NCBI GenBank assembly: GCA_963736875.1
Contig: CAVTQH010000004.1
Location: forward strand, 88,050 to 152,049
Source: Candidatus Amesbacteria bacterium
GTDB taxonomy: Bacteria; Patescibacteriota; Microgenomatia; CAZETR01; Amesbacteraceae
Length of the DNA stretch: 64,000 nucleotides
Direction of reading: 5' to 3'
The position numbers and the translations under genes were made by a program. Shown piece after piece: positions 8,648 through 54,342 of this stretch. The stretch's first letter is position 1, and each line of letters begins with the position of its first letter. The notes below the pieces were generated by a model. The model was not told where the DNA came from. It did no database searches and saw nothing but the letters and a program-made list of their open reading frames with translations.

Positions 8648-9341
8648 GTATATAGACCAATATTGTCACCTCACCTCTGAATGTTTTTTCATCATCCGGA
8701 CCGATATATTCAAATATTTTTGTCATTTCACGGGCTACAACAATCTGCGCACCGGGATATCGGTCTTTTATGTCTGTTAAAGTTATTTTAATTCTTTTTG
8801 GTGATTCGTAAATTATGGTAGTGGTTTCTTCCGGAATTTCCCATTTTTTCGATAAATATCCCAGAAATAAAAATTTGTTTGTCGGCAAACCTGCAGCACT
8901 CAATGCGGCGGTCACAGCCGACGCTCCCGGGATAGGAACAACACTAAAACCATGTTCTTTAGCCGATTTCACAACTTTATAACCGGGATCAGAAATAAGG
9001 GGAGTACCCGCATCCGAGACAATCGCCAGATCGGTCTTTTCCAGGATTTCCAAGACTTTTTGAACTTGACCCGCTTCATTCCAGTCACGTACGGAAATAT
9101 ATTTTGGGTTAATTTGACCCGTAATATTTAATAATCTGGAATATTTCTCTTCTAAAATTGTAATCAACTGGCCTGTCCTTCTGGTATCTTCACAGGCAAT
9201 GACCGGTACACTGAGTAACACTTTTATGGCTCTGATGGAAATATCCTCCAGATTGCCAATCGGAGTTGCTACTACGTATAATGTTCCCATATGGAGATTA
9301 TAAGTTATGTCGTTGATTTTATCCTTCATATCGATATTCAT
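8637..9341 (-). CDS. rsmI: 16S rRNA (cytidine1402-2'-O)-methyltransferase RsmI (tetrapyrrole-methylase fold)
   Basis: GTLYVVATPIGNLEDIS motif. The true start may be the internal Met at ~9290, which abuts the dedA ATG (CATATG). Confidence 0.8.
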   Translation of the reverse strand: MNIDMKDKINDITYNLHMGTLYVVATPIGNLEDISIRAIKVLLSVPVIACEDTRRTGQLITILEEKYSRLLNITGQINPKYISVRDWNEAGQVQKVLEILEKTDLAIVSDAGTPLISDPGYKVVKSAKEHGFSVVPIPGASAVTAALSAAGLPTNKFLFLGYLSKKWEIPEETTTIIYESPKRIKITLTDIKDRYPGAQIVVAREMTKIFEYIGPDDEKTFRGEVTILVYIPRE

Positions 9342-9938
9342 TTAGGGAGTCTGATTTCCGCTTACGGCAATTTCGTATATGCAATTCTGTTTCTGATTAT
9401 TTTTCTTGAAACCGGACTGGTAATTACTCCGTTTTTACCTGGAGACAGTTTGGTATTTGCCGCAGGTGCTTTTTCAGCCTTAGGTTCGCTTAATGTCTTT
9501 CTTGTATTTTTATTACTGTCTTTTTCCGCCATTTTGGGAGACACCGCAAATTACTGGATAGGTTATTTTTTCGGAAAAAAAATTCTCAGCCATCCCAAAT
9601 TACCTATCAATCAGGAACATATAGACAAAACCAATGCCTTCTTCAAAAAGCACGGAGGAAAAACCATTATTTTGGCCAGATTTATGCCTTTTATCAGAAC
9701 TTTTGCCCCTTTCGTAGCAGGTATAGGCAAAATGAACTATAAAAATTTTATCTTTTATAATTTTATCGGTGGTATTTTATGGGTAGGTATGTTCACATTT
9801 GTCGGATATTTTTTCGGCAATGTGCCTTTTGTAAAACACAATTTTTCCCTGGTTATAATCGCGATTATCCTTCTTTCAGTTTCTCCCGCTTTCTATGAAT
9901 TTATCAGACACAAAATTAAAAAAACCTCTAATTACTAA
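9291..9938 (+). CDS. dedA: DedA/SNARE-associated family membrane protein
   Basis: ETGLVITPFLPGDSLVFAAGA motif, multi-TM. Confidence 0.8.
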   Translation: MEIISYVVDFILHIDIHLGSLISAYGNFVYAILFLIIFLETGLVITPFLPGDSLVFAAGAFSALGSLNVFLVFLLLSFSAILGDTANYWIGYFFGKKILSHPKLPINQEHIDKTNAFFKKHGGKTIILARFMPFIRTFAPFVAGIGKMNYKNFIFYNFIGGILWVGMFTFVGYFFGNVPFVKHNFSLVIIAIILLSVSPAFYEFIRHKIKKTSNY

Positions 9939-10569
9939 TACCGTACTTCCGGATTACTCCTACAACTTTTCCCTGAATTCTAACCTTGTCTCCGGCCACA
10001 AAAATCGGTGACATTGTAGAATTTGCAGGTTCCAGCCGTACCCTTGTAGCTTCTTTAAAAAATCTTTTCAGTGTAGCAAAGCCGTTGTCGAGTAACGCCA
10101 CTACCACTTCACCGTTACTGGCGGTTTCCGTTTGTTCGATCACCACATAATCTTTATCAAATATTCCTGCTTCGATCATCGAATCACCTTTTACCTGAAG
10201 AACGAAACAACGTTTCTTGGGATTTACCATACTCGGAGGGACGCTGAATATGGAGTTCGGGTCGGTATAAGGTTCAATTGGTGATCCTGCGGCAATAAAA
10301 CCAAGAACCGGTAATTCTATAGCCGCTTCACTGGAAGTTCTTTCCGCGGCATTTTTGTCCAGTATTTCCAGACCTCTGACAGAACCCTCGTATTTCTTAA
10401 TAACTCCTTTTTTAACCATTGCCTGTAAATGTTCATGTACGGTAGCCAGTGAACTTACTCCCAAAGCCTTGGCAATCTCCTGTAAAGTAGGGGAATACCC
10501 ATTTGCCTGAATATACTGTGCCACAAAATCCAGAATTTGCCTTTGCCTGTTGTATAAAGTTACCGGCAT
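9928..10569 (-). CDS. lexA: LexA repressor (S24 peptidase)
   Basis: N-terminal wHTH (QRQILDFV...LQEIAKALG), and the C-terminal GDSM...K catalytic Ser/Lys dyad. Confidence 0.9.
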   Translation of the reverse strand: MPVTLYNRQRQILDFVAQYIQANGYSPTLQEIAKALGVSSLATVHEHLQAMVKKGVIKKYEGSVRGLEILDKNAAERTSSEAAIELPVLGFIAAGSPIEPYTDPNSIFSVPPSMVNPKKRCFVLQVKGDSMIEAGIFDKDYVVIEQTETASNGEVVVALLDNGFATLKRFFKEATRVRLEPANSTMSPIFVAGDKVRIQGKVVGVIRKYGISN

Positions 10570-10582
10570 ACATATAATCTAA

Positions 10583-10605
10583 CCGAAGAAAACACAAATG
10601 TCAAG
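10583..10605. promoter_or_regulatory. Candidate SOS operator / lexA -35 region shared by the divergent lexA and uvrB promoters
   Basis: CCGAAGAAAACACAAATGTCAAG. On the lexA strand this gives TTGACA-17-TAGATT. The same 23-nt layout (CCGAA-N9-AATGTCAAG) recurs upstream of the Y-family polymerase cassette at 54320..54342. Confidence 0.3.
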
Positions 10606-10608
10606 CCT

Positions 10609-12624
10609 ATGTTTAAACTTAACGCTTCATATAAACCAACCGGAGACCAGCCGGAGGCCATCAAAAAATTAATTTCCGGTATCAAATCAGGGACGAGACA
10701 TCAGGTGCTTTTGGGTGTCACCGGTTCCGGTAAAACGTTTTCGGTGGCAAATGTTATAGCTTCGGTACAAAAGCCCACTCTGATCATATCCCATAACAAA
10801 ACTTTGGCGGCTCAGCTTTACCAGGAGTTTAAGGAATATTTTCCCGACAATGCAGTCTCATATTTTGTTTCCTATTACGATTACTACCAGCCTGAAGCTT
10901 ATATTCCACAAACTGATACCTATATTGAAAAGGAAACCGATATTAATTCAGAAATTGATAAATTACGTCTCGCGGCTACTACCAATCTCCTTACCCGGAA
11001 AGATGTCATAGTGGTGGCATCCGTCTCCTGTATTTACAACCTGGGTTCTCCAGCGGAATACGGTAAAACCATACTAGAACTGGTTACCGGCTTCAAAGTC
11101 TCCCGTCAGCAAATTATTATGCGTCTAAATGACCTTCAGTATTCCAGAAGCGATTATGATTTTCACCGCGGGACATACCGGATCCGCGGTGAAGTTATCG
11201 ACATTTATCCGGCATATGAAGATACCGCGGTCAGGGTTCATCATGATGGTTTAAAAATCACCGGTTTGGAAAGACTCAATGCCTTGACAGGTGAAAATAT
11301 ATCAGAATATGGCAAACAAAATATCGCCATATATCCGACCAAACATTATATAGCTTCCAAGGATAATCAAAATCAGGTTATTTCTCAAATACACAGTGAC
11401 ATGTTAAACCGTTACGCAGAATTACAATCTCAAAACAAACCCCTTGAAGCACACCGGATTAAACAGCGTGTGGAATACGATATGGAAATGATCAGGGAGT
11501 TGGGGTATGTCAATGGTATCGAAAATTATTCCCGTTATTTCGACGGGCGTTCTCCCGGAGATCCCCCGTATTCTCTTTTGGATTATTTTCCCGAAGATTA
11601 TCTTCTAATAATTGATGAATCTCACATTACCGTTCCCCAGATCAGAGGCATGTATAACGGTGACAGGTCCCGCAAACAAACACTTATTGATTATGGATTC
11701 CGTCTCCCCAGTGCGTTGGATAACCGACCTTTAAAATTTCTTGAATTCGAACGTCGTATGGGACAGACTATTTATACATCGGCAACACCTGATGAATGGG
11801 AGATTTCCCAATCGATCCCCTATATTGTTGAGCAGTTAATCCGTCCTACCGGTCTGGTTGATCCCCAAATCGTGGTCAAACCGACAACCGGTCAAATACC
11901 TGATCTGATAACCGAGATTCAAAGCCGGGTTGGGAAAGGCCAACGGGTGCTGGTCACAACCCTAACAAAAAGAATGGCTGAAGATTTATCTGAATTTCTA
12001 AAAGATAAAGGATTAAAAGTTCATTATTTACATTCGGATATCGATACCTTGGAACGGCTGGATATTCTTTCTGATCTGCGAAGCGGAACATATGATGTGG
12101 TTGTAGGTATAAATCTGCTTCGTGAAGGACTGGATTTACCTGAAGTCTCATTGGTAGCAATTCTGGATGCCGATAAAGAAGGTTTTCTGCGTTCCCGGAC
12201 ATCTCTGGTTCAGACAATGGGCCGTGCGGCCAGGCATGTAGACGGGTCGGTCATTATGTATGCAGACCGCATAACCAACTCCATGGAAAAGGCAATTTCT
12301 GAGGTTAAAAGACGAAGAGAAGTACAAATCAAATATAACCATGACCATCATTTAATCCCGTTGTCTATAACCAAACCCATTCGCGAAAGGATTGTAGAAA
12401 AGACAGTGGACGAGCCGGTAAAACTTGACCCCAAACAAATTTTTTCCGGCCATGCTCTGGATGCCTCTGCGGTAGACTCCGATCTTGTTTCTCAGTTAAC
12501 TCCTCAAGATTTATCCAAACTCATTGGTTTGATCACCCGGCAAATGAATGCTGCTTCCAAACAGCTTGATTTCGAGCTGGCAGCCAAACTCCGTGATAAG
12601 ATAATTGAAATCAAAAATATCTGA
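10609..12624 (+). CDS. uvrB: Excinuclease ABC subunit B
   Basis: Walker A GVTGSGKT, helicase motifs, C-terminal UVR domain. 671 aa. Confidence 0.95.
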   Translation: MFKLNASYKPTGDQPEAIKKLISGIKSGTRHQVLLGVTGSGKTFSVANVIASVQKPTLIISHNKTLAAQLYQEFKEYFPDNAVSYFVSYYDYYQPEAYIPQTDTYIEKETDINSEIDKLRLAATTNLLTRKDVIVVASVSCIYNLGSPAEYGKTILELVTGFKVSRQQIIMRLNDLQYSRSDYDFHRGTYRIRGEVIDIYPAYEDTAVRVHHDGLKITGLERLNALTGENISEYGKQNIAIYPTKHYIASKDNQNQVISQIHSDMLNRYAELQSQNKPLEAHRIKQRVEYDMEMIRELGYVNGIENYSRYFDGRSPGDPPYSLLDYFPEDYLLIIDESHITVPQIRGMYNGDRSRKQTLIDYGFRLPSALDNRPLKFLEFERRMGQTIYTSATPDEWEISQSIPYIVEQLIRPTGLVDPQIVVKPTTGQIPDLITEIQSRVGKGQRVLVTTLTKRMAEDLSEFLKDKGLKVHYLHSDIDTLERLDILSDLRSGTYDVVVGINLLREGLDLPEVSLVAILDADKEGFLRSRTSLVQTMGRAARHVDGSVIMYADRITNSMEKAISEVKRRREVQIKYNHDHHLIPLSITKPIRERIVEKTVDEPVKLDPKQIFSGHALDASAVDSDLVSQLTPQDLSKLIGLITRQMNAASKQLDFELAAKLRDKIIEIKNI

Positions 12625-12860
12625 TGGAATAAACTTTTGATGTCTGTAATAATTGAAAGCGAAATCATATTTTCAAAGAAAAATCACAAAAATAATTCTC
12701 AGCCATATCAACGCGCTGAAATACCCAAAAAGATAGTCCCCCCTCCTCCTCACTGTAATAATAATTGCCTCAAAAAACACATACCATCAGACGGAAAGCG
12801 AAGAATAAAATAAGGCCTTATCGGGTCTTGAATAAAACCCGAAACTTCTGGTACAATGGT

Positions 12861-15731
12861 ATGTTTATGAATGACGAAATTGTAGTCCACGGAGCCCGCG
12901 AACATAACTTAAAAAATATTGATGTAACCATTCCCAAAAACAAACTGGTGGTTTTTACCGGCCTCTCGGGTTCGGGTAAAAGTTCTCTGGCTTTCGATAC
13001 TATATATGCTGAAGGACGCCGACGTTACGTGGAATCCTTAAGTTCTTATGCCCGTCAATTTCTTGGGGTGCTTGATAAGCCGGACGTGGATCAGATTGAC
13101 GGTCTTTCTCCGGCCATCTCCATTGATCAAAAATCCGCTTCACATAATCCGCGCTCGACGGTAGGAACAGTCACGGAAATTTACGATTATCTGCGTTTGC
13201 TCTTTGCACGCATCGGCCATCCGCATTGTCAGATTTGTGGTCGTGAAATTTCCCGGTTATCCGTTGAGCAAATTGTAAATTTTATAATTCTCACTCTTGA
13301 AAATTCTATTAAAACCAACAAATCCAAAAATGTCCGTTTTCTGATTCTGTCTCCTGTAATCAGAGACAGAAAGGGTGAATTTATCGATCTTTTCTCTTCT
13401 TTAAGGCAAAAAGGTTACACCCAGGTCAGGGCTGACGGCAAAATAATCGGTCTGGACGAGGACATTTCATTACTTAAAAATAATAAGCATTCGATAGATG
13501 TTGTCATTGACAGAATAATCGTCGATAAAAAATATTTGAATTTTTCTCTTTCTGATTTACGAACCAGATTGTTTGAAGCCGTCGAAAGTGGAATTAAACT
13601 ATCGGACGGATTATGTATCTTTTCCGAAATAAAAGATATAGTATTCGACTTACCCCGGATCCCCAAAATTCTGGAGGACCATTTGTTTTCCGAACGTTTT
13701 TCCTGTCCGATAGATAATCTTTCTCTGCCTGAGATTGAACCGAGGATGTTTTCTTTTAACTCTCCGCACGGAGCTTGCCCCACCTGTACAGGTTTGGGAA
13801 CCCTTCTAAAAATTGATGAGCAGCGGATACTCAGTCCGAATTTAACGATTTCCGAGGGAGGGGTATTGCCTTATGCAAACACTTTTGCCTACGACTCCTG
13901 GTTTGCTCAAAAAGTATCACAATTTATATCTATCCGCATCCCTATTAAAGACTTAACCGACGATCAGCTCCAGATTTTATTATACGGTACTGCAGACGGA
14001 TTTGAAGGTTTGATTCCGAATTTGGACAGAAGATACAAACAGACCGAATCCGATTTTGTCCGGGCGGAAATCGAAAAATATATGCGTAAGGAAATTTGCC
14101 CCACCTGCCGGGGGAAGCGTTTGAAACCGGAAGCCTTAAATGTAACATTGGAAGATAAATCCATTATCGAATTTACCCAGATTCCGATAAGTGAACTGTT
14201 CTCCTTATTAAATAATTTATCTAATTTAAATAACCGGGAAAAATCTATTTCCACCCCTATCCTCAAGGAAATACTGTCCCGTTTGGGTTTTTTGAAATCC
14301 GTGGGCCTGGATTACCTTACTCTGGATCGCGGAGCAAATACTCTTGCCGGCGGGGAAGCCCAGCGTATTCGTCTGGCCAGTCAGATAGGCAGTGGTTTAT
14401 CGGGAGTTCTTTATGTTTTAGACGAACCCTCTATCGGTCTTCATCAGAGAGATAACGGGAGGTTGATTACTACCCTTAAAAGATTGCGTGATCTGGGAAA
14501 TTCAGTCATTGTAGTTGAACACGATCGGGAAATGATGGAAGAATCCGATTGGATCATTGATTTCGGTCCCGGAGCGGGTGAACACGGAGGAGAAATAATT
14601 TCCAGCGGCACACCCGGTCAGATTAAAAAAGACCCCAAATCTTTAACCGGAAAATATCTATCCGGTCAAAAACAAATTCAAATTTCATCTTCAGAAAACC
14701 TTTTTCCGGATCATAATAAAAAACTTGTTCTTACCGGAGCCGGTGAACATAATCTGAAAAATATTAAGGTTGAATTTCCTCTGGGAAAACTGATAGTAAT
14801 TGCCGGAGTTTCAGGATCAGGCAAGTCAACCTTATTAATCGATATTATTTATCAGGCTTTGGAAAGTATTTTGAACACTGAGTATAAGGAAAAACCCGGA
14901 AAATATTCCGATTTATATATAACCGGCCCTGATCAGGAGAAAAATCCTTATATTCCTGACACTATTAATCGCGTAATCCTGGTTGATCAGTCTCCCATCG
15001 GCAGGACTCCACGCTCGAATCCTGCTACTTATACCGGCCTATTTACATATATTCGTGACATATTTTCACTCACTCCCGAATCCCGTGTACGCGGATATTT
15101 ACCAGGACGATTTTCTTTCAATGTCCGCGGAGGCAGATGTGAGAATTGTCAGGGAGAAGGTCAAATAAAAATTGAGATGCAATTCTTACCTGATGTTTAT
15201 GTCACATGCGAAGTCTGTAAAGGATCCAGATATAATTCTGAAACACTTGAGGTTCATTATAAGGGAAAAAATATCAGTGAGGTTCTGAATTTCACGGTAG
15301 AAGAAGCTTTGGAATTTTTTAAAGTCGTTCCTGCAGCTTTGGATAAACTATCTACGTTAAAGGATGTAGGGCTGAACTATATCCGCCTGGGTCAGCCTGC
15401 TCCGTCTTTGTCAGGGGGGGAAGCCCAAAGAGTTAAACTGGCGACGGAGCTTTCAAAAAGATCTACCGGAAAGTCTTTCTATATCCTGGACGAACCCACA
15501 ACCGGCTTGCATTTTGCTGATCTGGAAAAATTGCTAAATGTCTTAAAACGTCTGGTAAAAAGCGGTAATACGGTAGTGGTCATAGAACATAACCTTGATG
15601 TTATAAAAAATGCAGATTGGGTAATTGAGTTAGGCCCCGAAGGCGGAGATAGGGGAGGGCGGATTATCGCTTCGGCTACCCCAAAGAATCTGGCAAAAAT
15701 TTCCAGTTCCCCCACAGGGTCGTTTCTCTAG
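12861..15731 (+). CDS. uvrA: Excinuclease ABC subunit A
   Basis: Two ABC ATPase modules (GLSGSGKSSLAFDT; GVSGSGKSTL) and zinc-finger Cys clusters. The ORF-table start at 12765 is probably 5' extended; the MFMNDEIVVHG start at 12861 fits UvrA. Confidence 0.95.
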   Translation: MFMNDEIVVHGAREHNLKNIDVTIPKNKLVVFTGLSGSGKSSLAFDTIYAEGRRRYVESLSSYARQFLGVLDKPDVDQIDGLSPAISIDQKSASHNPRSTVGTVTEIYDYLRLLFARIGHPHCQICGREISRLSVEQIVNFIILTLENSIKTNKSKNVRFLILSPVIRDRKGEFIDLFSSLRQKGYTQVRADGKIIGLDEDISLLKNNKHSIDVVIDRIIVDKKYLNFSLSDLRTRLFEAVESGIKLSDGLCIFSEIKDIVFDLPRIPKILEDHLFSERFSCPIDNLSLPEIEPRMFSFNSPHGACPTCTGLGTLLKIDEQRILSPNLTISEGGVLPYANTFAYDSWFAQKVSQFISIRIPIKDLTDDQLQILLYGTADGFEGLIPNLDRRYKQTESDFVRAEIEKYMRKEICPTCRGKRLKPEALNVTLEDKSIIEFTQIPISELFSLLNNLSNLNNREKSISTPILKEILSRLGFLKSVGLDYLTLDRGANTLAGGEAQRIRLASQIGSGLSGVLYVLDEPSIGLHQRDNGRLITTLKRLRDLGNSVIVVEHDREMMEESDWIIDFGPGAGEHGGEIISSGTPGQIKKDPKSLTGKYLSGQKQIQISSSENLFPDHNKKLVLTGAGEHNLKNIKVEFPLGKLIVIAGVSGSGKSTLLIDIIYQALESILNTEYKEKPGKYSDLYITGPDQEKNPYIPDTINRVILVDQSPIGRTPRSNPATYTGLFTYIRDIFSLTPESRVRGYLPGRFSFNVRGGRCENCQGEGQIKIEMQFLPDVYVTCEVCKGSRYNSETLEVHYKGKNISEVLNFTVEEALEFFKVVPAALDKLSTLKDVGLNYIRLGQPAPSLSGGEAQRVKLATELSKRSTGKSFYILDEPTTGLHFADLEKLLNVLKRLVKSGNTVVVIEHNLDVIKNADWVIELGPEGGDRGGRIIASATPKNLAKISSSPTGSFL

Positions 15732-45119: not shown

Positions 45120-45191
45120 TCGGAGACGAGGGAATTGAACCCTCTACCTCTCGGTCCCAAACCGAGCGTTCTACCGATGAACTAGTCTCCG
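45120..45191 (-). tRNA. tRNA-Pro (anticodon TGG)
   Basis: Hand fold: acceptor CGGAGAC/GTCTCCG, anticodon stem CTCGG/CCGAG with loop TTTGGGA, T-loop TTCAATT. Confidence 0.85.
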
Positions 45192-45195
45192 TATG

Positions 45196-45280
45196 TGCCG
45201 AAGGCGGGACTCGAACCCGCATGAAGTGTTATCTTCGGGGGCTCTTAAGGCCCCTGCGTCTACCATTTCGCCACCTCGGC
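45196..45280 (-). tRNA. tRNA-Leu (anticodon TAA), type II
   Basis: Hand fold: acceptor GCCGAGG/CTTCGGC, anticodon stem GGGGC/GCCCC with loop CTTAAGA, long variable arm, T-loop TTCGAGT. Confidence 0.8.
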
Positions 45281-45303
45281 ATATACAAATTATATTATAA
45301 TTA

Positions 45304-45389
45304 TGTCGGTAATGGGCGAGTGCTGAAATTGGTATACAGGCATGCTTGAGGAGCATGTGGCCTTAATCGGCCGTGCAGGTTCAAGTCCT
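45304..45389 (+). tRNA. tRNA-Leu (anticodon GAG), type II
   Basis: Hand fold: acceptor GGGCGAG/CTCGCCC, anticodon stem CATGC/GCATG with loop TTGAGGA, long variable arm. Confidence 0.8.
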
Positions 45390-45391
45390 GT

Positions 45392-45409
45392 CTCGCCCAC
45401 CGCCTGCCG
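45392..45409. repeat. GC-rich hairpin element GCCTGCC-GGCG-GGCAGGC; its exact reverse complement recurs at 63168..63185
   Basis: 18-nt near-palindrome between tRNA-Leu(GAG) and tRNA-Leu(CAG). The inverse-orientation copy lies after rplT. Confidence 0.5.
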
Positions 45410-45425
45410 GCGGGCAGGCCCATCC

Positions 45426-45511
45426 GGGCGGATGGCGGAACGGTAGACGCGCTAGCTTCAGGAGCTAGTGACCTTAAAACGGTCGTGGAGGTTCAAATCC
45501 TCTTCCGCCCA
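45426..45511 (+). tRNA. tRNA-Leu (anticodon CAG), type II
   Basis: Hand fold: acceptor GGGCGGA/TCCGCCC, anticodon stem CTAGC/GCTAG with loop TTCAGGA, long variable arm. Confidence 0.8.
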
Positions 45512-45531
45512 CAGTACAATTGCTATAATAT

Positions 45532-45605
45532 GGACGATTAGCTCAGCTGGTTAGAGCGCCTCTCTTACACAGAGGAGGTCGGGGGTTCGAGCCCCTCATC
45601 GTCCA
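45532..45605 (+). tRNA. tRNA-Val (anticodon TAC)
   Basis: Hand fold: acceptor GGACGAT/ATCGTCC, anticodon loop CTTACAC, T-loop TTCGAGC. Confidence 0.85.
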
Positions 45606-45629
45606 CAAATAAAAAGCAAACAATCTCAA

Positions 45630-45702
45630 GCCGAGATAGCCAAGGTGGTCACGGCGGGCGCCTGAAGAGCGTCAGATTGAGGTTCGACTCCTCATCTCGG
45701 CA
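45630..45702 (+). tRNA. tRNA-Phe (anticodon GAA)
   Basis: Hand fold: acceptor GCCGAGA/TCTCGGC, anticodon stem GGCGC/GCGTC with loop CTGAAGA, T-loop TTCGACT. The D-arm is atypical (3-bp stem, 11-nt loop). Confidence 0.75.
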
Positions 45703-51839: not shown

Positions 51840-52775
51840 CTAAACTGAGAATATTTGACTTTTTGGAAGACCCATAGTAATATACGACCAGGTTTCGTAG
51901 CTTAGCTTAACCGCTTTGCTGTGAGATTTTAAAAGCCTCGGCACTGGGCAGGAGCCGGGGCTTTTTTTGTGCCTAAATTTCATACTATAATCAAACTGTG
52001 CGCCTCGTGGTGAAATGGTATACACGCAGGCTTTAGGAGCCTGTCCCAGCGATGGTGGTAGGAGGTTCGAGTCCTCTCGAGGGCACATTACAAACTTACT
52101 TTCCTGGCTTCTTTCCATTACTCTGAAATTATTATTCCCTGGATTATTTACCAAATCAGCCACCCGGTAAGCTTCCATTTTATCCGTTTCATTAGGTTCC
52201 ATTATTTTCTTGAGTCTTTCGATATCAAAAAATTTATTATTCAGCCAATCCTCTTCATCTTCTGTATTTAGTATTACCGGCATCCGGTCGTGAATTTCCA
52301 TCATTGTCTTATTTGCCTTTGTAGTCACAATTGAGAATGTCTTAATCTCAAACCCCTGGGCATCTTTCCAGATATCAAAAATTCCGGCAAAACCGAATAT
52401 TCTTCTTTCAACAAGCCTGATCCAATATGGAATTTTAAGTACTTTTCCCCGATCGGAAACTTTTCTCCACTCAAAAAATCCGCTGGCCGGTACCAGACAT
52501 CGCTGCTGTCTGAAAGCTTTTCTGAAAGCCGGTTTAACTTCTATCTCCTCGCTTCTGGCATTAATTGTGCTGTAGCTGATACGCGGATCCCTGGCCCAGA
52601 ACGGAATCAAACCCCATTTCATTTTTTCCACCTTTTTGGGGCTTTTCATGGTTACCACCGGCATTATCATTCCCGGTGCCACGTTATATTCCGGTGACAT
52701 TTCCACCTCGCGGTTTTCAATTTCAAACCGGTCATAAAAATCTTTTTCCGGTATAAATCCGTATCTTCCGCACAT
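51840..52775 (-). CDS. yedK: SOS-response-associated peptidase (SRAP/YedK/HMCES family) abasic-site processing protein
   Basis: N-terminal MCGRYG (Cys2 nucleophile) and SGFFEWR motifs. The family length (~230 aa) implies an end near ~52100, but the ORF stays open to 51840 and reads antisense through tRNA-Leu(TAG). Confidence 0.75.
   Translation of the reverse strand: MCGRYGFIPEKDFYDRFEIENREVEMSPEYNVAPGMIMPVVTMKSPKKVEKMKWGLIPFWARDPRISYSTINARSEEIEVKPAFRKAFRQQRCLVPASGFFEWRKVSDRGKVLKIPYWIRLVERRIFGFAGIFDIWKDAQGFEIKTFSIVTTKANKTMMEIHDRMPVILNTEDEEDWLNNKFFDIERLKKIMEPNETDKMEAYRVADLVNNPGNNNFRVMERSQESKFVMCPREDSNLLPPSLGQAPKACVYTISPRGAQFDYSMKFRHKKSPGSCPVPRLLKSHSKAVKLSYETWSYITMGLPKSQIFSV
51935..51968 (+). 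terminator. Rho-independent terminator (9-bp GC stem + T7), A-tract on the other side
   Basis: AAAAGCCTCGGC-ACTGGGCAGGA-GCCGGGGCTTTTTTT. Confidence 0.6.
52001..52085 (+). tRNA. tRNA-Leu (anticodon TAG), type II; the first two acceptor-stem pairs are mismatched
   Basis: Anticodon stem CAGGC/GCCTG with loop TTTAGGA, long variable arm, T-loop TTCGAGT. The 3' acceptor CGAGGGC faces 5' CGCCTCG (C1-C72 and G2-G71 unpaired). Confidence 0.6.
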
Positions 52776-52784
52776 ATTCCGATT

Positions 52785-54042
52785 TTAACTCATAACTATC
52801 TCCTCCAGCTCTTTTATCCCTCCGAACGCTATCCGGTCAGGTACCAGATCCGCCGCTCCCAACATCAGAGCCGGAGTCAGCACAAAATTTCCCCATCTTT
52901 CGTTTACCTTATCCACCGCCGCCACCAGACTTTCCTTTTTTGCTACCTCCTCCAAAAATGTTGTTTGCAAAACGCCTTGTTTTACTAAATCAAATCCTGA
53001 TACCGCCAGTGTATGCACGGGTTTCCGATACGGGGAAGAGACCATTATCCGCCTGGCTGCCTTATAAATATCCCTGCTGTCAAAGATCGGATCGGGCTGC
53101 ACCTGCCCATGATGCCACCAGGAAAAATCACGGTACAGCATCCCCACATGCACTCCCCGGGCCCGATACCCGGCCCGCCGCATTCTCATCCCCATCTTAA
53201 AAACCAGTTTGTGCAAAATCGGCGACAATTCTTCAGGGCAGGAAACCGGTTTGGGCAAAGCATAACTGTTCCCGTAGCTTCTCCGGGCAAACACCACATC
53301 GTCAACCTCAAACCCCCTCAGACGTAAATACCAATAGTATCCCAGTACCGAACCAAACGCAGCTTTCAGAACAGTTGCCCGCGCTGCCCAAAAATCAACC
53401 ACGGAAAATATTCCGAAATAATTCAGACGGGCTGCGTTATTACCCTTGATTCCGCACAAATCCGCCAGTTTCAAACCCATATAAATTGTCAGAAAATTAC
53501 CTTTGTCAATCACATCCAGCCCGTCCGGTTTGTGCAGAGAAGCTCCGGTTTTGGCCAGCCACCGGTTGGGAGCAATCCCCACCGACACCCGCAAAAAATC
53601 CCCCACTTCCTCTCTGACCCTTTTTTTAATCTCCGTCGCCACCTCCACCATCCCCCTGCGCCGACAGGGGGCTCCCTCCAAATCCATCACAAATTCATCT
53701 ATCGACTTGGGTGTCACTTTATCGGTATAAGTCCCCAACAAGCTGCTTCAGTTTAAGATGTACCGACCGGTATTTATTCGGATCCGGCGGTATCACTATC
53801 AGTTCGGGTACCAGCATTCTGCCGTCTTTCACCCGCATTCCCACCCGTACCCCCAGCTTCTTGGCTTCCACCGAAGGAGCAATAATGCATCCCCCGGGGG
53901 TCGTATATGCCGCCACCGCCACCGGTTTACCCCGGAGGAGGGGATTGGCCTGCTGTTCCACACTGGCAAAGCAGGAATTCAGGTCCAAATGGATAATCGT
54001 CGGCTCTTTTGAATTAAAAGACAAATCAGTCAGCTTCTCCAT
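52785..54042 (-). CDS. dinB: Y-family DNA polymerase (DinB/UmuC-like, Pol IV/V class); N-terminal 107-aa and C-terminal 318-aa ORFs split by an apparent frameshift
   Basis: N-terminal IIHLDLNSCFASVEQ motif (the conserved DxxxFFAxVE block). C-terminal VGIAPNRWLAKTGASLHKPDG and the little-finger region. Noticeably GC-richer (~57%) than its neighbours. Confidence 0.8.
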
Positions 54043-54286
54043 CGCTTATCTCCTCCAAAGTCCAAAAAAGATTATCCGTATCCAGAACCAGGCGGAAAAA
54101 AAGGCTTTCGGACACTACCGAAAACACATGCAGCAAGGTCCTCCCCTGGCGGAATACGTGGTGATACCCCACCCGGCGTATCAGATAGTCCCGTCCGTCA
54201 AATACCACCCTCACGGGGCCTACCTGCCGTTTCCGGTGATCATAAAGCGTCTCTACTGTCACCGGAACTTTCAACTTTTGTATCAT
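54026..54286 (-). CDS. Hypothetical small protein encoded first in the Y-polymerase/SRAP operon, possibly a polymerase accessory factor
   Basis: 86-aa ORF overlapping the polymerase start by 17 nt. No motif recognised. Confidence 0.3.
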   Translation of the reverse strand: MIQKLKVPVTVETLYDHRKRQVGPVRVVFDGRDYLIRRVGYHHVFRQGRTLLHVFSVVSESLFFRLVLDTDNLFWTLEEISDGEAD

Positions 54287-54319
54287 AGCTACTCTGCTGG
54301 CCCTCGTCTTTATTCATAC

Positions 54320-54342
54320 CCGAATATTACCCGAATGTCAAG
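54320..54342. promoter_or_regulatory. Candidate promoter/operator of the polymerase cassette, sharing a motif with the lexA/uvrB region
   Basis: CCGAATATTACCCGAATGTCAAG. On the cassette strand this gives TTGACA-17-TATGAA with TTCGG elements in the spacer, 34-56 nt upstream of the first start codon. Confidence 0.3.

Follow-up and report, generated by a model that had tools for sequence, protein, structure and literature searches.

A compact divergent lexA-uvrB control region with a single predicted direct-repeat LexA box in Candidatus Amesbacteria

The region considered here lies between lexA and uvrB in a 64,000-nucleotide stretch of DNA from a Candidatus Amesbacteria bacterium (contig CAVTQH010000004.1, positions 88,050 to 152,049; in the following termed the window and numbered from its first letter). 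The two genes are divergently arranged, lexA on the minus and uvrB on the plus strand, and the sequence together with the list of open reading frames (ORFs) places an intergenic gap of just 39 nucleotides (nt), 10570..10608, between them. This gap probably constitutes a compact two-way SOS control region in which one LexA box would serve lexA as well as uvrB. A first-pass annotation, made from the letters alone, had described interleaved divergent promoters and a candidate operator at this place. The gap and all four hexamers that it named, TTGTAT and TATAAT for uvrB and TTGACA and TAGATT for lexA, are located exactly where it had put them, and the interleaving of the two promoters is backed by the relatives described below. 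The coordinates of all features are collected in Table 1.

The identities of both genes are solid. LexA matches the N-terminal winged-helix DNA-binding domain (PF01726, 5.5e-18) and the C-terminal S24 peptidase domain (PF00717, 6.4e-31), and it can be aligned over its full length to the LexA structures from E. coli and Thermotoga. In this alignment, the Ala-Gly cleavage site IAAGSP corresponds to VAAGEP of the E. coli LexA structures, the catalytic serine in GDSM to GMSM and the lysine in LKRF (LKR) to VKRL. With winged helix-turn-helix and S24 domains, the Ala-Gly site and the Ser/Lys dyad all in place, the protein is to all appearances an intact LexA. Its closest database relatives are LexA proteins from Candidatus Amesbacteria (Microgenomates, Patescibacteria/candidate phyla radiation, CPR) with 73-89% identity, while the nearest LexA proteins outside of the CPR stem from Firmicutes, those from Bacillus being 42-45% identical. 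The predicted start of uvrB, MFKL, lines up with residue 1 of the uvrB products of relatives. Rfam yields tRNAs only and has no match in the control region.

With regard to the operator, we collected lexA loci from relatives among the Microgenomates, 38 of them from genome assemblies (L001-L038) and 80 from metagenomes (L081-L160). Motif discovery with a Gibbs sampler, applied with no prior to 107 non-redundant sequences of 150 nt from upstream of lexA, returned a single motif, TTCGGGTWWTRTTYGK, that is present in nearly every sequence (about 100 of the 107). The consensus derived from 99 instances, T-T-C-G-G-G-T-W-W-T-R-T-T-Y-G-K, carries 20.6 bits, and there is little or no variation at positions 1, 4, 5 (98/99), 12 (98/99) and 15. 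The motif is not a palindrome. Matrix positions 1-6 (TTCGGG) and 12-16 (TTYGK) have the same orientation and lie 11 base pairs (bp) apart, so that TTCGG and a downstream TTYG form a direct repeat with an 11-bp period. In the lexA promoters of the relatives the motif is situated 0-2 nt downstream of a conserved TTGACA and thus fills the spacer between the -35 and -10 hexamers. The -35 hexamer is TTGACA in 63 of 97 non-redundant lexA promoters and TTGACT, TTGACG or TTGACC in most of the others. The lexA promoters of two loci, L130 and L141, feature three tandem 11-bp units (TTCGGGTAATC TTCGTATATTG TTTGTA), which points to half-sites that can occur in arrays and to possible binding of LexA by more than one dimer.

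In the window, the box reads TTTGTGTTTTCTTCGGT on the minus strand, follows the pattern TTYGKK-N5-TTCGK and coincides exactly with the 17-nt spacer of the lexA promoter. Against the matrix built from the 99 lexA promoter sites it scores 14.3 bits (p = 2.7e-6 per position), a value for which 1.3e-4 matches are expected by chance in the 39-nt gap and 0.35 across the whole window; the box is itself one of the 99 training sites, and the circularity thereby introduced is negligible. An alignment of 12 Amesbacteria reveals the conserved blocks CAAATGTCAA, CCGAA, TATAAT (10/12), CAT and TTGTA, and the window box matches the invariant CCGAA and CAAA blocks of this alignment. The first-pass annotation had proposed a 23-mer, CCGAAGAAAACACAAATGTCAAG, spanning the lexA -35 and the uvrB +1 region, as operator for a single repressor that could shut both genes. 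Its position holds up, as does the notion of a single repressor acting on two genes, since the 23-mer contains 16 of the 17 operator positions. Its extent does not: the TGTCAA part is the -35 hexamer of lexA, and the unit now predicted is the 17-bp direct repeat.

The hexamers were also sought by a promoter scan of positions 9000-13000 with a sigma-70-like consensus. The scan lists the lexA promoter (10/12 match) and does not list the uvrB promoter; it recovered 11 sites as compared to 10.9 expected in shuffled sequence. The hexamers alone are therefore not above chance, the scan was rejected as evidence, and the case rests on the comparison with relatives. With regard to lexA, this comparison concerns the distance between the -10 hexamer and the ATG, which amounts to 6 nt in the window; among the 97 non-redundant relatives, 56 have a distance of 4-9 nt, with a mode of 6. 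Such a 6-nt spacing leaves no room for a Shine-Dalgarno sequence. Transcription of lexA is predicted to start at 10569, the first base of the ATG, and to yield a leaderless mRNA, so that the term near-leaderless, used in the first reading of the sequence, would have to be replaced by fully leaderless. Because of the 4-9 nt distances, leaderless lexA mRNA is, as far as promoter spacing can tell, the prevailing arrangement in the group. Elsewhere in the window, TATAAT-like hexamers occur 6-8 nt before the start codons of several genes, e.g., upstream of 9291, 15746, 27897, 43120, 49021 and 50460, and Shine-Dalgarno-like cores are rare, being located upstream of only 7 of the 46 larger genes. There are hints that leaderless mRNAs may be common in this genome; the genome-wide leaderless signal comprises 35 genes and is too sparse to call.

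Divergent orientation of uvrB relative to lexA was found in at least 57 of 114 loci, and three arrangements can be distinguished. Compact gaps of 36-55 nt (the window, L085, L082, L087, L086 and L002, all Amesbacteria-like) have one box each; in L085 the lexA -35 hexamer lies only 1 nt from the uvrB ATG. Most of the gaps of 78-113 nt, which occur in Woesebacteria-like and other loci, have a second box of the same orientation on the uvrB side, and in L154 a box is located immediately 5' of TGcTAGAAT, which itself lies 7 nt before the uvrB ATG. Two further Amesbacteria have expanded gaps, L089 with 350 nt and L081 with 385 nt. Here, lexA retains TTGACA-box-TAGATTATA, and uvrB has a copy of its own, TATAAT-t-(A/G)CCGAA...CCCAAA, followed after 4 nt by the ATG. 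These two loci can be regarded as a natural dissection of the control region, and they support the view that TATAAT and box go along with uvrB; the separate set at uvrB argues for TATAAT 10573-10578 as the -10 hexamer of uvrB and for the box as a uvrB operator. Transcription of uvrB is predicted to start near 10585, inside the operator, with a leader of approximately 24 nt devoid of a Shine-Dalgarno sequence. Short palindromic insertions that resemble each other, e.g., CCCCTCTTAGATTAAGAGGGG and CCCTCTCCTTGATTAAGGAGAGGG, were noted in the lexA-uvrB gaps of L090 and L001 and in the uvrA leader of L002; located in different intergenic regions of related Amesbacteria, they have the appearance of a small mobile element of palindromic structure.

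The claim that the uvrB promoter lies partly within lexA codons has fared unevenly. Its -10 hexamer stands, on account of its conservation among the Amesbacteria and of L089 and L081. The -35 hexamer, on the other hand, is weak and confounded with coding constraint. In 11 of 12 relatives TTGTA is found unchanged, yet it is the reverse complement of the LexA codons for Tyr-Asn/Lys. The Tyr6 codon of LexA is TAC in 12 of 13 Amesbacteria as compared to 44% in other Microgenomates and 34% genome-wide, while adjacent synonymous sites vary; this bias was not accepted as proof of a uvrB -35 hexamer and is suggestive only, the sequences being related by kinship.

Several observations weigh against a box shared by both genes. 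The window box is the weakest of its clade, with 14.3 bits as compared to a median of 22.7 bits for all training sites, and its position 5 is T instead of the G of 98 of the 99 sites. Judged from the low score and the T, lexA and uvrB may be less tightly repressed in this genome than in relatives; the T could also be an assembly error. The uvrB -35 hexamer matches TTGACA in three of six positions and falls within constrained lexA codons. Finally, where uvrB lies more than 200 nt away from lexA, it has a box of its own in only 5 of 19 loci, and LexA control of uvrB is thus not universal in the group.

We regard as unlikely the explanation that the box controls lexA only and that uvrB is a neighbor merely through genome compactness, being expressed constitutively or from a start that LexA does not block, e.g., from an antisense promoter deeper in lexA. 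The 5 of 19 separated loci fit this explanation, as does L083, an Amesbacteria-like locus in which uvrB lacks a box and its ATG is preceded, at 7 nt, by a plain TAGAAT promoter. The half-matching -35 hexamer and its absence from the promoter-scan list point in the same direction, and conservation of TATAAT might partly be explained by constraint on the lexA -10 hexamer and start, since TAGATTATA is also kept where uvrB is farther off. However, the second TATAAT and box at uvrB in L089 and L081, 350-385 nt away from lexA, are hard to explain unless they are a uvrB promoter and operator. A second box on the uvrB side of the 78-113 nt gaps likewise speaks against control of lexA only, and in the window no alternative -10 hexamer is present within 10 nt of the uvrB ATG.

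The assignment of the box to LexA is supported by its occurrence in the regulator's own promoter, its conservation and its presence upstream of other repair and translesion genes. The highest-scoring match in the window, with 24.9 bits and 5e-4 such matches expected across its whole length, is located directly after a TTGACA in front of an operon for an 86-amino-acid protein, a Y-family polymerase and an SRAP/YedK protein. The two best-scoring sites of the window thus both reside in SOS-type promoters, that of the dinB/yedK operon and that of lexA/uvrB (14.3 bits). The 86-amino-acid protein has 53 homologs, all of them uncharacterised. Four contigs retrieved by way of these homologs provided a test that is independent of lexA: in each of L162, L163, L164, L165 and L166, the single site of at least 12 bits within 1-7 kilobases is situated in the promoter of the 86-amino-acid protein/Y-family polymerase operon (L162, 23.8 bits; L163/L164, 25.6 bits; L165/L166, 16.2 bits). 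In L161 the spacing of the box is altered, and this variant stays below 12 bits. Lack of conservation of the motif upstream of SOS genes in relatives would, in the terms of the first-pass annotation, have refuted its proposal; the operon promoters of L162-L166 show that the motif is conserved there. The third intergenic site, a partial box of 11.1 bits, overlaps the -35 hexamer of uvrA. Here, TTGAAYAAAACCCGAAA and the TACAAT behind it are conserved in all four of the Amesbacteria loci that extend to uvrA, namely the window, L002, L082 and L085. Placement and orientation of the box relative to the promoter hexamers vary: it occupies the spacer at lexA and dinB, lies downstream of the -10 hexamer at uvrB of Amesbacteria, covers the -35 hexamer and the spacer at Woesebacteria-like uvrB and is inverted over the -35 hexamer at uvrA. 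This is the behavior of an operator and not that of a promoter element.

It appears very improbable that the direct repeat is the site of another regulator or a specialised promoter element, e.g., one for an alternative sigma factor. In favor of this reading, the repeat is always located within or beside sigma-70-like hexamers; on the other hand, it is present in essentially every lexA promoter examined, as is typical for an autoregulated repressor, it also precedes the genes for the Y-family polymerase/SRAP, uvrB and uvrA, which constitute a canonical SOS set, its position and orientation relative to -35 and -10 hexamers change from gene to gene, and a direct-repeat LexA motif is attributed to this superphylum in PMC7739468. 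The notion that hexamers and 23-mer arose by chance in an AT-rich gap and lack any regulatory meaning can practically be discarded, since, even though promoter-like sites occur about as often as in shuffled sequence (11 vs. 10.9), it is already contradicted by the comparative data, with blocks conserved over 12 Amesbacteria while adjacent synonymous codon positions vary and a motif expectation of 1.3e-4 for this gap.

The analysis shows the sequence features and their conservation, the joint occurrence of the box with SOS-type genes downstream of it, and an intact LexA. For the preferred reading, one box for lexA and uvrB, we infer LexA binding, transcription starts, leaderless translation, promoter competition and induction by damage along the following lines. 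A LexA dimer, or an array of LexA, would sit on the 17-bp direct repeat. At lexA, TTGACA and TAGATT have nothing but the repeat between them, and bound LexA would exclude RNA polymerase, resulting in autoregulation. On the uvrB side the box would span approximately -3 to +14 of the start predicted from TATAAT, and the bound repressor would block initiation. Upon DNA damage, activated RecA would trigger self-cleavage of LexA at Ala-Gly, the box would be vacated and both genes would be switched on. As the -10 hexamers on opposite strands overlap by 3 bp, only one polymerase could be accommodated at a time, and the two promoters would compete once derepressed. The lexA mRNA would begin at its ATG, and the uvrB mRNA would carry its leader of about 24 nt. 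The operon for the 86-amino-acid protein, the Y-family polymerase and YedK would be under the control of the same kind of box, and uvrA probably under that of the partial box.

A more far-reaching proposal, which we put forward tentatively and consider somewhat short of probable, is that the SOS module of Amesbacteria is a minimal one. One box would be both the spacer of a leaderless lexA promoter and the +1 region of uvrB, and mutually exclusive binding of polymerase would couple resynthesis of the repressor with excision repair. In L089 and L081 this module would have been duplicated and resolved into two promoter-operator units, and the 86-amino-acid protein, an all-beta protein confined to Patescibacteria and without known fold relative, would act alongside the Y-family polymerase as a core partner under LexA regulation.

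Table 1. Genes, promoter hexamers and predicted LexA boxes discussed in the text (positions are those of the window).
Feature	Position	Strand	Remarks
lexA coding sequence, 213 amino acids	9928..10569	-	ATG 10569-10567; LexA_DNA_bind and Peptidase_S24 domains
uvrB coding sequence, 671 amino acids	10609..12624	+	UvrB_inter, Helicase_C, UvrB and UVR domains
lexA -35, TTGACA	10599..10604	-	Promoter scan; invariant in Amesbacteria alignment
lexA -10, TAGATT	10576..10581	-	Promoter scan and relatives; ends 6 nt before ATG
uvrB -10, TATAAT	10573..10578	+	Kept in 10/12 Amesbacteria; overlaps lexA -10 by 3 bp
Possible uvrB -35, TTGTAT	10550..10555	+	Inside lexA codons 5-7; 17 nt before TATAAT; weak, uncertain
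Predicted LexA operator, 17 bp	10582..10598	-	TTTGTG-ttttc-TTCGGT; repeat 1 10598-10593, repeat 2 10587-10582
23-mer of the first-pass annotation	10583-10605		Contains 16/17 operator positions
Partial LexA box TTCGGGTTTTATTCAAG	12827..12843	-	11.1 bits; overlaps uvrA -35
uvrA promoter	TTGAAT 12828-12833, 18 nt, TGgTACAAT ending 12857		ATG 12861 or 12867; found by promoter scan
Consensus LexA box TTCGGGTAATATTCGGG	54319..54335	-	Directly after TTGACA 54341-54336; 24.9 bits
Operon behind the 54319-54335 box	51840..54286	-	86-amino-acid protein, Y-family polymerase, SRAP/YedK
86-amino-acid conserved hypothetical protein	54026-54286	-	
Y-family polymerase, split by a frameshift	53719-54042 and 52785-53741	-	Pfam IMS, IMS_C
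SRAP/YedK	51840-52775	-	Pfam SRAP

Further observations concern the genes and sites outside of the lexA-uvrB gap. The split of the Y-family polymerase gene goes back to a single extra T near 53731-53741, where the window has GACTTATACC and relatives imply GACTATACC; in relatives the polymerase is one protein of 405-418 amino acids. The split either represents a real pseudogene or stems from a sequencing or assembly error. The ORF for SRAP/YedK encodes 311 amino acids, while the SRAP domain extends only to residue 212 and the protein of a relative comprises 221 amino acids. The additional C-terminal part runs antisense through a tRNA gene (52002-52085, plus strand), and either the ORF is over-extended or its original stop codon may have disappeared. 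Signature searches detected none of recA, ruvB, recN and ribonucleotide reductase genes in the window.

Additional matches to the box matrix, of 9.5-13.4 bits, at 2674, 16677, 20366, 22083, 29999, 36348 and 49804 are situated in coding sequence or between convergent genes, and one at 45604 adjoins a tRNA gene in a tRNA cluster; all of these were rejected as background. Seven tRNA genes on both strands are crowded into about 600 nt at 45120-45702, and spurious small ORFs are listed over them.

The uvrA leaders of Microgenomates other than Amesbacteria contain a conserved hairpin or palindrome, CC(A/G)(C/T)CGG-N4-6-CCG(A/G)(C/T)GG, between a TATAAT-like -10 hexamer and the ATG (L013, L015, L019, L020, L021, L029, L114, L132, L135, L137, L138, L141 and L148). 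One of its pairs clearly covaries (U-A in 6, C-G in 4), and Rfam has no match to it. Both an RNA element and an operator for a different regulator are conceivable.

CPR/Patescibacteria are not amenable to pure culture, and regulation in these organisms is known almost entirely from sequence. The locus described here offers a very small test object, 39 bp with one box and two promoters, for LexA binding and transcription in vitro. The combination of a Gram-positive-like LexA with a direct-repeat box bears on the question of how a dimer adapted to palindromes recognizes half-sites in tandem, and the locus illustrates sharing, duplication and loss of operators during genome reduction. Existing knowledge is left unchanged, as the SOS system is a canonical one and the class of motif has, according to PMC7739468, already been published for the superphylum. 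The value of the locus is that of a minimal substrate for direct-repeat recognition by LexA and for promoter competition in a CPR bacterium.

Among the LexA boxes of other bacteria, that of Alphaproteobacteria, given as GTTC-N7-GTTC in the introductions of PMC4951493 and PMC8565304, is likewise a direct repeat with an 11-bp period and has the TTC trinucleotide in common with the box described here; it differs in that the repeated unit is GTTC, whereas TTCGG and TTYG are invariant here. The Gram-positive box of Firmicutes and Actinobacteria (Cheo box), GAAC-N4-GTTC in the same two papers, belongs to the nearest LexA proteins outside of the CPR, and its half-site GTTCG shares TTCG with the repeat units here, but it is an inverted and not a direct repeat. 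With up to one mismatch, GTTC-N7-GTTC is present neither in 10570-10608 nor at 54319-54335 and occurs 37 times across the window as compared to 47 times by chance, while GAAC-N4-GTTC is not present in the gap and occurs 18 times as compared to 23 expected. As neither of these known motifs is found in the gap or exceeds its chance frequency across the window, both were rejected for this region. The recognition-helix region of the window LexA, SSxATVHEHL, resembles its counterpart in B. subtilis, SSSTVHGHL.

In E. coli, uvrB is a LexA-controlled SOS gene, and in B. subtilis lexA is divergent from yneA, another SOS gene. The arrangement proposed here differs from both in that one box would serve both genes within 39 bp, exactly fills the lexA promoter spacer and is accompanied by overlapping -10 hexamers and a predicted leaderless lexA mRNA. 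Divergent overlapping promoters with a single operator are also known from E. coli bioA and bioBFCD, where one repressor, BirA, shuts both transcription units. The likeness to the control region considered here would be one of logic alone, as regulator and pathway differ.

The SOS network of Patescibacteria itself was reportedly analysed by Sanchez-Osuna, Barbe and Erill in 2017 (Environ Microbiol 19:3465). PMC7739468 counts this study among the cases in which LexA has evolved recognition of direct repeats, and the statement of the first-pass annotation that the LexA operator of CPR-like bacteria is not established is out of date. The Patescibacteria motif and the box described here agree in superphylum, regulator and direct-repeat architecture. 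The lexA-uvrB locus of the window is a new and unusually compact case of an already described class of SOS operators, with the box shared with a divergent excision-repair gene.

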